NCBI GenBank assembly: GCA_963665115.1 | Contig: OY762007.1 | Span: forward strand, 4,960,001-5,024,000 | Direction: 5' to 3' | Source of the DNA: an uncultured Rivularia sp. | GTDB lineage: Bacteria; Cyanobacteriota; Cyanobacteriia; Cyanobacteriales; Nostocaceae | DNA: 64,000 bases | Shown here: positions 3,971 to 12,578 of the stretch, one piece after another | Position numbering within the stretch: position 1 is the stretch's first letter | Layout: each line of letters starts with the position of its first letter | The notes under the pieces: generated by a model | What the model was told of the DNA's origin: nothing | Database searches by the model: none | Seen by the model: the letters and a program-made list of their open reading frames with translations, nothing else | Made by a program: the position numbers and the translations under genes

Positions 3971-4630
3971 TTATTTCTCAAACAAATTCCCTTCATTTCG
4001 ACGACGATTAATTAAGCCTGGTAATTTTTTCCCACTACCATGAACCCAACGATTTAATTCGCTTGGTACGGCTTTGTAATCTTGATTATTTAATTTAGCT
4101 AATAATGTCGATGATGCAAATTGGGTTTCTCCAATATTAAATACAAAACTCACAAGGGCATCAAACTGATTTTGATTTAGCGGTACTTTGACTAATCTAT
4201 TAACTGTGTTTTCGGCTGTAATTACATCAGAGCGTAAGATTTCCATTGCTCGTTCTTTTGTAATCCCACTTTTAAATTCTTCCGGTTCGCTACCATTTAT
4301 CGGGCCATAATGTACCAAATGACCAACACCAATTGTTGCATGATTAGCTGGGTCATTATATAAATGTAAAATCATTCCTTCGTGTTCGGCGATAAATTTT
4401 AAACCATTATTACCAATTTTTTTATTATCGGAATTAGCTTGAATATTCGTATTTTCTAGCGGTAAAGAAACAATTTGACCAATTTGTAACCGTCGCGCTT
4501 CGTTTTCTGTAAAGCATTCTCCCGTGTCTTTAGTTATCTCCTGCCAACGGTTAGCGCTGCCTAGGTGAAGTTGTGCGATCGCGCTTAGGGTGTCACCAGA
4601 TTTGATCGTGTAAGAAGTACGATTTTTCAT
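3971..4630 (-). CDS. LysM-domain GH24 (phage-type) lysozyme
   Basis: N-terminal YTIKSGDTLSAIA LysM; HEG..LHLYND....ATIGVGH (E-x8-D-x5-T triad), QNQFDALVSFVFNIG, LPGLINRR..E. Confidence 0.9.
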   Translation of the reverse strand: MKNRTSYTIKSGDTLSAIAQLHLGSANRWQEITKDTGECFTENEARRLQIGQIVSLPLENTNIQANSDNKKIGNNGLKFIAEHEGMILHLYNDPANHATIGVGHLVHYGPINGSEPEEFKSGITKERAMEILRSDVITAENTVNRLVKVPLNQNQFDALVSFVFNIGETQFASSTLLAKLNNQDYKAVPSELNRWVHGSGKKLPGLINRRRNEGNLFEK

Positions 4631-8390: not shown

Positions 8391-8417
8391 TCTATCGATT
8401 TAATTCGCTACGAGCGA

Positions 8418-8461
8418 ACTAAATTCACAATATTCCAAATTTATGGTATATTGAATTTAGT
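8418..8461 (+). promoter_or_regulatory. Extended -10 promoter overlapped by a palindromic operator (retron promoter)
   Basis: TG-n-TATATT at 8444-8452; perfect 10-bp inverted repeat ACTAAATTCA (8418-8427) / TGAATTTAGT (8452-8461). Confidence 0.55.
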
Positions 8462-8462
8462 C

Positions 8463-9076
8463 GGATAAAAGGAGATGTTTGCCATTTACTGGATTGCTTC
8501 GGCATTCCGTGGAAGATAGTTATATATCTTCTATCGTGTTTCTAATTTATCTATTTGAGAAACGTGTAATTCACGCGGGTTGCCACACTAGAGACTACTT
8601 AAAGACTCCAGGAAAGAAACCTCAATGAAATTATCATTGCACGATTCCTAGAAATGTTTAGTAAACATAGAACTGTAATTATTTCCCCTATGAGTACGTT
8701 GTTCTAGGTTACTAACTAAACTAAATTAGGAAAATGAATATGAATAGAAAACACTCAAGCGCAGCTTTAGCAAATTAGCTGCGTAGGTATGGGGAGGGTT
8801 AAAACTGCTGTTCTCCTGGTTTGTTTGAGGCAACACTTATTTGTGGAAACTTGAATAAGTGCAAACAAAACATATGCATGAGGTTTTTATGCAAGAAAAA
8901 TCCGATAAACAGCAGCAGCAATCGAAAAAGCGTAAATCAAAACGGTGGCTGAAATGGCTCCGTCAACCTCAAACGCTCCGTCTACTGTTACAACTTGGTA
9001 CAATCATTTTTAATATCTTAAAATGGTTGGTCGAACGTTCACATGGTTGATATAGATTGCTTACCTCCTTTTATCT
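8463..9076 (+). ncRNA. Putative retron msr-msd / hybrid RNA enclosing a small ORF
   Basis: Terminal arms GATAAAAGGAG (8464-8474) and CTCCTTTTATC (9065-9075) are exact reverse complements. Internal hairpins at 8491-8508 (cUUCGg loop), 8510-8533, 8538-8563, 8623-8639, 8647-8708, 8760-8783 and 8820-8869. Lies directly upstream of the HTH and retron RT genes. Confidence 0.75.
8889..9050 (+). CDS. Small basic/amphipathic protein (53 aa), candidate retron effector
   Basis: GAGG RBS at 8880-8883, ATG at 8889; MQEKSDKQQQQSKKRKSKRWLKWLRQPQTLRLLLQLGTIIFNILKWLVERSHG has a basic patch followed by a hydrophobic helix. Confidence 0.65.
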   Translation: MQEKSDKQQQQSKKRKSKRWLKWLRQPQTLRLLLQLGTIIFNILKWLVERSHG

Positions 9077-9116
9077 ATAAAACTCCTTAATATCCTCTGT
9101 TCAAAGGAGGTTAACA

Positions 9117-9425
9117 ATGTTAAATGAGGCTCTAAGATTAATTAGAGTATTCTACGATTTACCACAGAAGCAACTTGCAGAGAAATTAGGAATATCTAAA
9201 TCATATCTTTCAGAAATTGAGTCGGGAAAAAAGACTCCTACAATTGATTTGCTAAATCGTTACGCAGATTTTTTCGATATCCCAGCATCCTCAATTATGT
9301 TCTTTTCAGAAAGCTTAGAAAAGGATGCAAAAGTAGAAAAACTGAGAAGTTTTGTATCTTCTAAAATTATAGCTATTCTTAACTTTATTGCTGAAAGGTC
9401 TGGTAATTCTTATGCCGAAAAATAA
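9117..9425 (+). CDS. XRE/Cro-C1 helix-turn-helix protein (retron accessory)
   Basis: Strong AAAGGAGG RBS; LRLIR...LPQKQLAEKLGISKSYLSEIESGKKTPT HTH; overlaps the RT start by 14 nt. Confidence 0.9.
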   Translation: MLNEALRLIRVFYDLPQKQLAEKLGISKSYLSEIESGKKTPTIDLLNRYADFFDIPASSIMFFSESLEKDAKVEKLRSFVSSKIIAILNFIAERSGNSYAEK

Positions 9426-10311
9426 GCATACAATATATGAATTAGATCAATCACCTTTTTACTGTTTGAAGTCTAAAGCGAAACTCGAAAAGCTTTTACT
9501 TATAACTAAAAGCAAACTTCAAATGCTTACTAAATCAGAAGATTTGTATCGCGAGAGTAATATTTATGGAAAAAATGGTAAACCTCGTCCCGTACAAAAA
9601 CCAAGACCTGATTTAAAAAGAGTTCAAAAGCGAATTGAAGAGCTTTTAAAACGAATAAAGCTTCCAAGTTATATATATGCTCCTGCGAGGGGGCTTTCCC
9701 ATATTAATAATGCTCAAGCTCATATAAATGCTGTAGTCCTAAGAACGCTTGATATTGAAAAATACTTTCCTTCTACACCATCAAGGCACGTTTATTCATT
9801 CTTCCACAAACGGATGAAATGTTCTCCAGATGTTGCTGGAATTTTAAATAAGATATTAACATTCAAAGGTTATTTACCAACTGGCAGTCCATCAAGTCCA
9901 ATTATTTCCTATTTTTCACATATTGATATGTGGGAATCAATATACGAAATTGTGAATCAAGCTAATTGTAATTTAGCTGTTTACATGGACGATGTAACTA
10001 TTTCAGGTGATGTTGTTCCTGACAAATTGATTTGGCAAATAAAGCAGCAGTTTTATAGCTGTGGATTGCGTAGTAATAAACAGAAAGAAAAATTTTACGT
10101 TGGCAAAAAGTCATCTGAAGTAACTGGAATCATTATCAAAGAAGGTAAGTTAAAGATTCCTAATCGTATACATTGGAAAATGTATAAGATTCGTCTAACT
10201 CTTCATTCAGAAACTCAGCCAAACAAACGTAAGAAGCTGATGCAACAATTGGAAAGTTTAAAGGCATATGAGCGACAAATTCTAATATCAAACTCTGCTT
10301 CATTAAATTGA
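9412..10311 (+). CDS. Retron-type reverse transcriptase (299 aa)
   Basis: NAQAH (retron region X NAxxH), LDIEKYFPS, LPTGSPSSP, catalytic YMDD, VTG (region Y); no intron maturase or endonuclease extension. Confidence 0.92.
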   Translation: MPKNKHTIYELDQSPFYCLKSKAKLEKLLLITKSKLQMLTKSEDLYRESNIYGKNGKPRPVQKPRPDLKRVQKRIEELLKRIKLPSYIYAPARGLSHINNAQAHINAVVLRTLDIEKYFPSTPSRHVYSFFHKRMKCSPDVAGILNKILTFKGYLPTGSPSSPIISYFSHIDMWESIYEIVNQANCNLAVYMDDVTISGDVVPDKLIWQIKQQFYSCGLRSNKQKEKFYVGKKSSEVTGIIIKEGKLKIPNRIHWKMYKIRLTLHSETQPNKRKKLMQQLESLKAYERQILISNSASLN

Positions 10312-10364: not shown

Positions 10365-10592
10365 ATGAACACTTCTATCATTGACGAAGTAATTGAACAA
10401 CTCGGAACCATGCCGCAGCACTTACAATCGCAAGTACTAGATTTTGCTCGTAAACTTGTACAAAACGAAGTTAAAGGTACTCCTGGTTCGCAATTACTGC
10501 GTTTTGCAGGTTCTATTCCTGCTAATGACGTTAAATTAATGAGGGAAGCGATTGAACAAGACTGCGAACAGGTAGATGTCAATAAGTGGTAG
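10365..10592 (+). CDS. Putative VapB-type antitoxin
   Basis: 75 aa, P...Q.QVLDFA..L...GTPG..LLRFAG.I...D...M..AIE pattern; overlaps a PIN toxin gene. Confidence 0.7.
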   Translation: MNTSIIDEVIEQLGTMPQHLQSQVLDFARKLVQNEVKGTPGSQLLRFAGSIPANDVKLMREAIEQDCEQVDVNKW

Positions 10593-10971
10593 GTTCTTGC
10601 TAGATACAAACATTATCATTGCTCTCTTTGCAGATGAAGAAGCAGTTAAAAATAAGCTTGCTCAAGCCAACGAAGTTTTTATTCCAAGCAATGCTATTGG
10701 TGAATTGTGTTACGGTGCTAGAAAATCGGGGCGAGTTCAGGCAAATCTAGCAAGAGTTGATGAATTGATTGCGAACAGTGCAGTGCTTGAATGTGATGCT
10801 GAAACTGCTCGGCAATACGGTGAAGTCAAAAACCAGTTAAGGTTAAAAGGTCGTCCGTTACCTGAGAATGACATTTGGATTGCAGCCGTTGCCTTACAGC
10901 ATAATTTAGTTTTGGTAACACGCGATGCTCATTTTCAGCAAGTTGAGAATTTGCAATCTGTCAATTGGTAA
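10576..10971 (+). CDS. vapC: VapC-family PIN domain toxin
   Basis: LLDTNIII, GEL..GA, P.NDIWIAA.ALQH.L.LVTRD.HF. Confidence 0.9.
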   Translation: MSISGRFLLDTNIIIALFADEEAVKNKLAQANEVFIPSNAIGELCYGARKSGRVQANLARVDELIANSAVLECDAETARQYGEVKNQLRLKGRPLPENDIWIAAVALQHNLVLVTRDAHFQQVENLQSVNW

Positions 10972-11189: not shown

Positions 11190-11783
11190 TTGAAACTAAT
11201 TTTAGTTGCCCCCGAATCATTATTAACAGCAGCTTTTCAACAACATTTCAATTATTTCCCTAACATCGAAATTGTTAACAACTACTTTGAATGGTTGCCT
11301 GTTTTCGATTGTTTAGTTAGCCCTGCAAATTCGTTTGGGATGATGGATGGTGGTATGGATGCAGCCATTATCAAGTTTTTTGGAGATTCCTTGATGGAAA
11401 AGGTGCAGCAGCGCATCCTTACAGATTATTTAGGAGAGCAACCTGTAGGAACATCAATGATTGTAGAAACAGGTAATCGTAAACATCCATTTCTCGCACA
11501 TACACCTACCATGCGGGTTCCCATGTCTATCGTAGGGACGGATGTTCCTTATGTAGCGATGTGGGCTATGCTTTTAGCAGTGCGTCGTCACAACCAATCT
11601 TCTCAGCATAAAATTAACACCGTTGCTTGTCCCGGTTTGGGTACGGGAATCGGTAGAATTGATTACGATGAAGCAGCCAGACAAATGGCTTTAGCTTACG
11701 ATAATTTTCTTTATCCCCCGAAGCATCTTAATTGTTTTGTTGCAGCTTCCAGACAACTTTTGATTTGGGAAGGTAATGGGTAA
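11190..11783 (+). CDS. Macrodomain (ADP-ribose binding/hydrolase) protein
   Basis: VSPANSFGMMDGGMDAAI, HTPTMRVP, PGLGTGIG macro motifs; TTG start. Confidence 0.85.
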   Translation: MKLILVAPESLLTAAFQQHFNYFPNIEIVNNYFEWLPVFDCLVSPANSFGMMDGGMDAAIIKFFGDSLMEKVQQRILTDYLGEQPVGTSMIVETGNRKHPFLAHTPTMRVPMSIVGTDVPYVAMWAMLLAVRRHNQSSQHKINTVACPGLGTGIGRIDYDEAARQMALAYDNFLYPPKHLNCFVAASRQLLIWEGNG

Positions 11784-11820
11784 TTGGTAATAGTAAATGT
11801 TCCTACCCCAATATTTTTTT
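11731..11820 (+). repeat. Direct repeat copy 1 (3' end of macrodomain gene)
   Basis: 11731-11774 matches 12621-12664 at 42/44 nt; similarity continues through AATGTTCCTACCCC. Confidence 0.9.
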
Positions 11821-11868
11821 GTTTGGGAAGGTGGTAATTAGTAATTTGTGGGAACATTTAATGATGCG

Positions 11869-12213
11869 TTATGGTTCTAACAATTTCTCCATCAGCGTAT
11901 AAATATCGTTTTTATCACCTTCTTTCCGTAAACCTATTCCTACTACTAAAACTATTATTTTCTCAAGTTCAACTTTGTAAATAATTCTGTAGCGTTGACC
12001 TACTGCTCTAAGACTGCGATAACCTAAAAGATAATCGACTAAAGCTTTACCTTGAAGAAGTGGATCTGTTTTTAACTTATTTATGCGTTGGCTCAAGCCT
12101 TTTCGATGACGCTTATCTTTAATACCGCTTAACATTTCTAATGCTAGCGGTGTCAGTTGAATTTCATACTCGGTATTAGCGGGCTGATTTGTATCTGAGT
12201 CCAACTTATTCAA
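11869..12213 (-). CDS. RelE/ParE-family toxin
   Basis: YEIQLTPLA...I..LK.DP...GK.L...L.GYRSLR....RYRIIYKV....I.V.V..IG.R. Confidence 0.85.
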   Translation of the reverse strand: MNKLDSDTNQPANTEYEIQLTPLALEMLSGIKDKRHRKGLSQRINKLKTDPLLQGKALVDYLLGYRSLRAVGQRYRIIYKVELEKIIVLVVGIGLRKEGDKNDIYTLMEKLLEP

Positions 12214-12245
12214 ACTTCCCTAAAATTCAAGCACCTTACAATTAG

Positions 12246-12269
12246 AAATGTACATTAAAGTGTACATTT
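12246..12269. promoter_or_regulatory. TGTACA palindromic operator-like site
   Basis: AAATGTACA-N6-TGTACATTT; related GTAC-core array at 12589-12615 upstream of the antitoxin. Confidence 0.45.
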
Positions 12270-12311
12270 GTAGAAGCAGTATGGGAAAGTCCAAAAATAT
12301 ACTTACTAGAT

Positions 12312-12578
12312 TTATTCAAGTCCAAGTTTAGCTTTTGCTTCCTCCCAAGTTATAGTTTCTCCTCTTTGAGCCTGCTGAATACTTTCTTGCAACTGTTTGC
12401 TGAATTTTTTATCGGAAAGAATAGCTAAAGTTTCCATCATAGATTCAAATTTTTCAAAGCTAAGTGCTGCCATTACTGGCTTACCATGCTTAGTAATAAT
12501 TACTGCATCGTCTTTCAACTCATCGGGCAAATTTAATAACTGCTGTCTAGCTTCTGTAATAGTTAGATACTTAGGCAT
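12312..12578 (-). CDS. Phd/YefM-family antitoxin
   Basis: LTITEAR..L..L......VIITKHGKPV....S.E.FES..ETL.IL. Confidence 0.9.
   Translation of the reverse strand: MPKYLTITEARQQLLNLPDELKDDAVIITKHGKPVMAALSFEKFESMMETLAILSDKKFSKQLQESIQQAQRGETITWEEAKAKLGLE

Follow-up and report, generated by a model that had tools for sequence, protein, structure and literature searches.

Does the small open reading frame at 8889-9050 (plus strand) of this cyanobacterial DNA, whose start codon falls within a predicted hairpin, encode a membrane toxin that stays untranslated until reverse transcription releases it, as a first-pass annotation of the 64,000-nt stretch analysed here (the window) had proposed? The sequence strings on which that proposal drew are all present where it placed them, and the reading frame belongs to an intact type VI retron, a known kind of anti-phage system, in a cyanobacterial host: it is the gene for the small protein (SP) in a series that runs structured RNA, SP, HTH and RT.

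The elements of a type VI retron found in the window are an RT with its motifs, an HTH gene upstream of it, SP and a structured RNA 5' of SP. The RT (9412-10311, plus strand; 299 aa, uninterrupted) carries NAxxH at 9709, YMDD at 9982 and VTG at 10120, and its best PADLOC model is RT_VI (E = 9.7e-91, with the runner-up model at 3.6e-44); its closest named relatives are from cyanobacteria. Upstream, and overlapping the RT gene by 14 nt, lies the gene for a Cro/C1 (XRE) HTH protein of 102 aa (9117-9425, plus strand; PADLOC HTH_VI, E = 2e-36; Pfam HTH_3), in which R7 is conserved in alignments. This agrees with the definition of type VI retrons as it appears in the text of Mestre et al., 2020 (PMC7736814) and in the PADLOC RT_VI and HTH_VI models, in which a clade 3-type RT is immediately preceded by a Cro/C1 HTH 91-110 aa long. 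Unlike the type VI SPs of 75-79 aa, the SP here has 53 aa and matches no PADLOC model, which fits the heterogeneous 'Large' lineage that includes Retron-Vpa2. By analogy with that retron, the one here would be expected to produce ssDNA and to defend its host against phage. Directly 3' of the RT gene are a DUF2281/PIN pair, a macro-domain gene and a Phd/ParE-family pair (10365-10971 and 11190-12578), so that the retron lies in a small toxin-antitoxin and defence cluster; a gene for a LysM and phage-type lysozyme protein is found on the minus strand at 3971-4630, about 4 kb upstream of the retron.

Matches to an SP profile were found in 29 of 389 genomes of the host family (Nostocaceae), in 8 of 401 genomes of the order and at three metagenome loci, and RT_VI matches in 13 of 201 host-family genomes. 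HTH and RT genes lie directly 3' of SP at all 30 family loci, at four further strong order-level loci and at the three metagenome loci; three weak order-level SP matches (L072-L074) were rejected, tblastn having found no SP, HTH or RT there. After duplicate removal there were 39 SP loci, of which 35 were kept, L008 and L028 being set aside as distant, L036 for its longer spacer and L066 for the 104 nt inserted in its SP; the 34-row alignments are these 35 loci less the near-duplicate L044. Because the homologues are kin, the covariation, permutation and repeat statistics given below overstate their independence. Degraded relatives are also seen, with an early SP stop in L071, a split HTH in L053 and a split RT in L069, in addition to the interrupted SP of L066. 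Two RTs that score with RT_VI (L020, L022) have no matching HTH or SP nearby, and each of two alphaproteobacterial plasmid type VI retrons (L076, L091) is followed by a TIR-domain gene.

The SP peptide proved to be much as it had been described, with two predicted helices (residues 4-24 and 27-52; mean pLDDT 79, pTM 0.34), the first cationic and the second amphipathic, and a net charge of +10. The gene is identified by its homologues, its linkage to HTH and RT, the structure model and purifying selection, dN/dS being 0.19 over the C-terminal 27 codons of 32 sequences. The hydrophobic moment of the second helix is 0.56, and its best 19-residue hydropathy of 1.56 is borderline for a transmembrane helix, a value of 1.6 being reached by only one of 34 homologues; the helix is amphipathic and not clearly transmembrane. 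Two alternative start codons, GTG 8859 and ATG 8874, were rejected because the homologue alignments begin at ATG 8889. The C-terminus reads RSHG here and FLQD in L064, its closest relative within the genus. The possibility of a frameshift or an error of assembly was rejected, as the differences are substitutions only and an independent protein, P0029, has the same changes and also ends in RSHG.

SP is likely to be the toxic effector of the retron, a self-toxin of abortive infection by analogy with related retrons, and, judging from its sequence, it may act through its amphipathic helix, probably at a membrane. The toxins of type I toxin-antitoxin systems such as TisB and Hok are likewise small amphipathic peptides whose start is hidden in their own mRNA. 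The locus here differs from these in that no antisense RNA is apparent, the SP region having no promoter match on the minus strand, and in its linkage to HTH and RT; SP gave no meaningful Pfam or PADLOC match, and the one link to such toxins is a weak lead to TisB (score 0.78) in an Atlas search that returned nothing at 0.9 or above. The main texts of the preprints on Retron-Vpa2 and Retron-Sen3, the two characterized type VI retrons considered below, show neither membrane action of SP nor how it kills.

The region from 8455 to 9085 (631 nt) is predicted to fold into three arms that radiate from a node, itself closed by the terminal repeats (z = -4.4, none of 20 shuffles being as stable), and a separate shuffle gave z of -5 to -8 in all eight sequences tested. 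If, as predicted, it is made as one transcript, its modelled fold matches the three-arm hybrid RNA described for Retron-Vpa2. A terminal inverted repeat on the plus strand (8463-8474 with 9065-9076; 12 pairs, probability 0.99) closes the predicted hybrid RNA of about 620 nt, and at least four end-to-end terminal pairs are predicted in only 10 of the 35 homologues. Arm 1 combines two short hairpins with a long variable stem and, after it, a conserved terminal hairpin. The two short, msr-like hairpins (8491-8534, plus strand, as for all of the RNA elements that follow), with 98.5% and 94.5% of alignment cells paired and two-sided changes, would be recognised by RT. The long stem (8535-8754), the predicted msd template, folds as a long arm and differs among homologues in both length and sequence; in L039, L003, L045 and L006 it is enlarged by short tandem or duplicated segments, and the total RNA measures about 475 to 665 nt from locus to locus. 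The terminal hairpin (8759-8784; probability 0.99, 96-97% of cells paired), whose loop at 8769-8773 carries the first copy of a repeat, is predicted to form the 5' stem-loop of the msDNA, which in Retron-Vpa2 is 23 nt long (Zhang et al., 10.1101/2025.10.22.683967).

Arm 2, the riboregulator arm (8805-8915), comprises a closing helix (8805-8812/8908-8915; 99.5% paired; 6 of 34 sequences show a C-G/U-A switch), an inner hairpin (8821-8868; four pairs with two-sided change) whose bulge AGGCAA at 8828-8833 is the second copy of the repeat, and the start-codon hairpin (8875-8893). The third arm encloses the remaining SP coding sequence, its helix (8917-8923/9055-9061) having 97.9% of cells paired, two-sided change at three of seven pairs and a probability of at least 0.5 in 31 of 35 homologues. 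Taken as a whole, a 43-pair model of the RNA is 96.5% paired in 34 sequences, as compared with 29-50% for slid controls, and shows two-sided change at 14 pairs versus 4.9 in shuffles (0 of 500 shuffles reaching the observed value); the covarying pairs include codon positions that pair with the region 3' of the stop codon. No Rfam family was matched at its cut-off, the four matches seen (E 0.2-1) all being far below it.

How well does this RNA hide the SP start? It had been claimed that eight pairs bury both the Shine-Dalgarno (SD) sequence and the ATG, and this holds in part. Seven pairs (8875-8881/8887-8893) are in the minimum-energy fold, with a mean pair probability of 0.95 at 37 C in the 630-nt predicted transcript (range 0.8-0.99) and a similar picture at 30 C, whereas the eighth, G8882-U8886, reaches only about 0.5. 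The AUG is fully paired (0.98-0.99), but the SD sequence GAGG is only half covered, with G8880 and A8881 paired, G8882 at about 0.45-0.5 and G8883 open in the loop. Among 741 SD-bearing starts picked mechanically from the genome, none has its AUG as completely paired, and the hairpin is energetically modest (-5.3 kcal/mol alone and -6.1 for positions -20 to +15), with 7.2% of those same starts having an equally stable local fold. To describe the start as 'locked' is too strong, as opening the 29-nt ribosome footprint at SP costs 10.0 kcal/mol, the same as for an average gene (mean 10.1 over 526 control starts, 45% of which need an equal or greater cost); the cost lies above the 90th percentile in only one of 35 homologues.

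The hairpin is nonetheless kept by evolution as a feature and not as a sequence, its sequence being lineage-specific. In register, it is whole in only one of 34 sequences, and in the aligned homologues the covariation of the hairpin named in the first-pass annotation, as of the long-range pairing proposed alongside it, is at or below that of shuffles. Compared without alignment, a stem of at least four pairs that takes in the G of the AUG is present at 27 of 35 loci, as against 35% of non-matching combinations, and this equivalent hairpin covaries with the first codons (permutation p = 0.0005 among 11 start types). We set aside as evidence the pairing of the AUG's G in 34 of 35 homologues: in the same folds 83% of all G's are paired, so that the count carries no information. 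An upstream TCTCC is predicted to pair with the SD sequence at 10 of the 35 loci; no such anti-SD pairing is predicted in the Rivularia copy.

The loop of the arm-1 terminal hairpin and the bulge of arm 2 share a repeat of 5-10 nt at 26 of 35 loci, as compared with 6% of random windows; the shared repeat is only 4 nt in the Rivularia copy, and 4 nt or shorter in eight other homologues too. A leader motif, TTGCC (8479-8483, plus strand), is complementary to the GGCAA-type repeats, pairing in 167 of 170 cells with the bulge copy and in 158 of 170 with the loop copy, and the leader and both repeat copies change together in L005, L006 and L071; as a third copy of the repeat motif, the leader may have a role in an RNA switch.

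These features have a close precedent. In Retron-Vpa2, a type VI retron of Vibrio parahaemolyticus, SP is the sole toxin and is toxic alone, the RBS and AUG lie in stem-loops of arm 2 of a three-arm hybrid RNA, msDNA is both necessary and sufficient in trans for SP translation, HTH represses reverse transcription, and 7-nt direct repeats in the loops of arms 1 and 2 are a proposed toehold (Zhang et al., 10.1101/2025.10.22.683967). The locus here appears to resemble it in SP size and RNA layout: the two share the order RNA-SP-HTH-RT, the three arms, the terminal inverted repeat, a short direct repeat between arms 1 and 2, an AUG predicted to lie in an arm-2 stem-loop, R7 of the HTH, and an SP of similar length (53 versus 55 aa) with a hydrophobic C-terminal helix and a coding sequence inside the structured transcript. 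The two differ in that the host here is a cyanobacterium, the RNA is about 620 rather than 470 nt, the predicted msDNA is about 250 rather than 86 nt, the RT has YMDD rather than YADD, and the repeat is only 4 nt in the Rivularia copy rather than 7 nt. SP is likened to that of Retron-Vpa2 by position, size and pattern only; a broad-profile search for the latter had no Vibrio protein among its matches.

The reading that we favour, and hold to be rather probable, is that folding of the RNA keeps SP from being translated until msDNA, induced by phage, pairs with the bulge of arm 2 and releases it. What the locus and its homologues themselves contribute is the gene order, the intact RT motifs, purifying selection on an SP that is strictly linked to HTH and RT, helices that covary and, in most homologues, the loop/bulge repeat. 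If the steps follow those of Retron-Vpa2, RT and HTH would bind the hybrid RNA, and HTH would keep reverse transcription low; phage recombination proteins would cause msDNA to accumulate, and the loop at its 5' end would pair with the riboregulator arm at its AGGCAA bulge, freeing the start region, whereupon SP would be translated and growth would stop. HTH may in addition bind a palindrome at the promoter and set its own transcription, a step suggested by sequence. As gene order, predicted three-arm RNA and, in most homologues, the loop/bulge repeat are as in Retron-Vpa2, the core of the first-pass annotation, a silenced toxin released by RT-DNA, is probably right; it is the mechanism of Retron-Vpa2, to which it is tied by analogy, and is not new.

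What found no support is the notion that reverse transcription simply remodels the RNA. When the template or the bulge is blocked in silico, the opening cost of the SP start shifts by less than 1 kcal/mol here (11.0 unblocked, 11.0 with the template blocked, 11.2 with the bulge and 10.2 with the bulge and adjacent stem blocked), and the same blocking at 14 loci gave similarly small shifts, of at most 2.7 kcal/mol. An opening cost this nearly constant means that the fold model does not reproduce a switch, and proteins or kinetics must then supply the missing part.

The same insensitivity to modelled msDNA binding, together with the ordinary opening energy, would also be expected if SP were always translated and directly neutralised by HTH, the RNA being a scaffold for RT and the start hairpin only tuning the level of SP. 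This is how Retron-Sen3 (type VI, cl2075) has been shown to work: SP and ssDNA are constitutive there and HTH neutralises SP, although the RBS is likewise predicted to be buried (Garcia-Rodriguez et al., 10.64898/2026.04.27.721009). The locus here shares with Retron-Sen3 the gene order, a two-helix SP, an RBS predicted to be buried (in part here) and an SP gene lying in a conserved RNA scaffold that a repeat 3' of the stop codon closes, and its SP hydrophobic moment of 0.56 is nearer to that of Sen3 (about 0.6) than to that of Vpa2 (0.3-0.4), bearing in mind that windows and scales may differ. However, SP here has 53 aa versus 79 in Sen3 (75-79 aa in Sen3-type clusters) and lacks the N-terminal extension of about 25 residues found in that lineage, and the locus matches Vpa2 in its three-arm fold, in the loop/bulge repeat and in having a start hairpin that covaries. 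We regard control of the Sen3 kind as unlikely here, if still the most serious of the alternatives.

Another reading, and an improbable one, is that the family works as described for Vpa2 but that the Rivularia copy is attenuated or decaying, with its toxin or its switch weakened. In comparison with L064, the SD sequence has shortened from AGGAG to GAGG, the loop repeat from GGCAA to AGCAA and the C-terminus from FLQD to RSHG, and broken relatives do exist (L066, L071, L053, L069). Yet neither HTH nor RT is truncated and no motif is missing, the RSHG ending recurs in P0029, loop repeats this short are common to eight other homologues, and the candidate operator and predicted promoter, described below, are perfect. 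That the switch is instead a long-range pairing of GTTTGAGG (8823-8830) with CCTCAAAC (8967-8974), in an RNA mechanically remodelled by reverse transcription, can be given almost no credence: the 8-nt complement is there and 91% of its cells are still paired in homologues, but its ensemble probability is 0.00, a complement like it arises in 36% of shuffles, it is whole in only 15 of 34 sequences with two-sided changes at none of its eight pairs in the 34 homologues, each strand's conservation is otherwise explained (by the inner hairpin and by codons), and the start hairpin is unchanged when the template is removed from folding, the pairing itself being at chance level.

Under the Vpa2-like control that we favour, the HTH would act on the RNA and on reverse transcription; the DNA just upstream suggests a further role. 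A palindrome, TTCGCT-N3-AGCGAA (ACG spacer here), at 8404-8418 is the sole exact copy in the genome. It lies just upstream of a predicted sigma70-type promoter (8424-8452, plus strand), TTCACA-17-TATATT with a TG extension, which is the best of seven consensus matches between 8100 and 10400 (chance expectation, 8.6); an extended -10-like box is present in 33 of 35 homologues. At least 11 of the 12 fixed bases of the palindrome are found at 29 of the 35 cyanobacterial loci, as compared with 2 of 1500 background windows, and the palindrome ends 20-21 nt before the -10 box at 27 of the 33 loci where such a box was found. Its conservation extends from cyanobacteria to alpha-, beta- and gammaproteobacteria and Staphylococcus: among 28 distant type VI loci, 17 score 11-12, three score 10, five score 9 (which is uninformative) and three fall below 9, and the palindrome mostly lies 5-9 nt 5' of a -35-like box that starts with TTG. 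Across phyla, loci with the palindrome beside the -35 box include L075-L079, L081-L083, L093 and L096-L101; L084, L085 and L087, distinct viral HTH loci with no RT nearby, were excluded from the count. In several loci (L047, L063, L069) there is a third half-site about 10 nt downstream.

The fixed sequence, the fixed spacer and the position outside the predicted transcript suggest a DNA-binding site, and we consider the palindrome a likely candidate operator for the retron's own HTH. Two related type VI retrons of P2-like phages (L080, L102) have a degenerate HTH recognition helix and no palindrome, and their sister locus has both; this joint loss is one event only, and at the third distant locus that lacks the palindrome (L094) the recognition helix looks ordinary. 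A motif-only scan of viral contigs found at least 120 palindrome loci; among the matches listed, a type VI HTH and RT lie about 490-560 nt downstream of six, XRE-type HTH genes follow two others and 112 have no such gene. The palindrome of L165, on a viral contig, lies 5' of a ParE-family toxin and XRE antitoxin pair whose recognition helix is similar to that of the retron HTH, and that of L208 lies 5' of a stand-alone XRE gene. XRE-family autoregulators, among them the controller proteins of restriction-modification systems and HigA-type antitoxins, bind a palindrome next to the -35 box of their own operon. As with these, the palindromic site here adjoins the -35 box of an HTH-encoding operon, with binding being a prediction; unlike them, the type VI retron HTH has also been reported in a complex with RT and RNA. 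Mestre et al., 2020 (PMC7736814) suggest, in the text available, that the HTH of type VI retrons may regulate transcription, and the main text of neither the Vpa2 nor the Sen3 preprint mentions an operator, a palindrome or autoregulation, although their supplements could. We found no report of a palindrome at type VI retrons in the literature searched, with the same proviso for supplements; a paper on XRE regulators (PMC9769523), considered as a possible earlier report, describes a different site in its text. It is a tentative proposal, which we put at slightly short of even, that in type VI retrons of this lineage HTH is also a sequence-specific regulator of its own promoter through TTCGCT-N3-AGCGAA, an extra transcriptional layer that would couple transcription, reverse transcription and toxin translation.

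As an instance of a mechanism published in 2025, the retron here mainly shows that the architecture of Retron-Vpa2 reaches cyanobacteria, in 29 of 389 genomes of the host family. The homologue set lends covariation support to the riboregulator arm and to the msDNA toehold repeat, a hypothesis in the Vpa2 paper, and natural variants among these homologues could help in choosing between the Vpa2 and Sen3 models. With the silencing and release of SP already published, the promoter palindrome is likely to be the addition relative to the literature searched, and the candidate operator is the part of the finding most worth testing. It bears on the purpose of the DNA-binding helix of the HTH, and could also serve as a marker for finding type VI retrons. 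If HTH does act there, its displacement by a phage trigger could switch transcription, reverse transcription and toxin translation at once.
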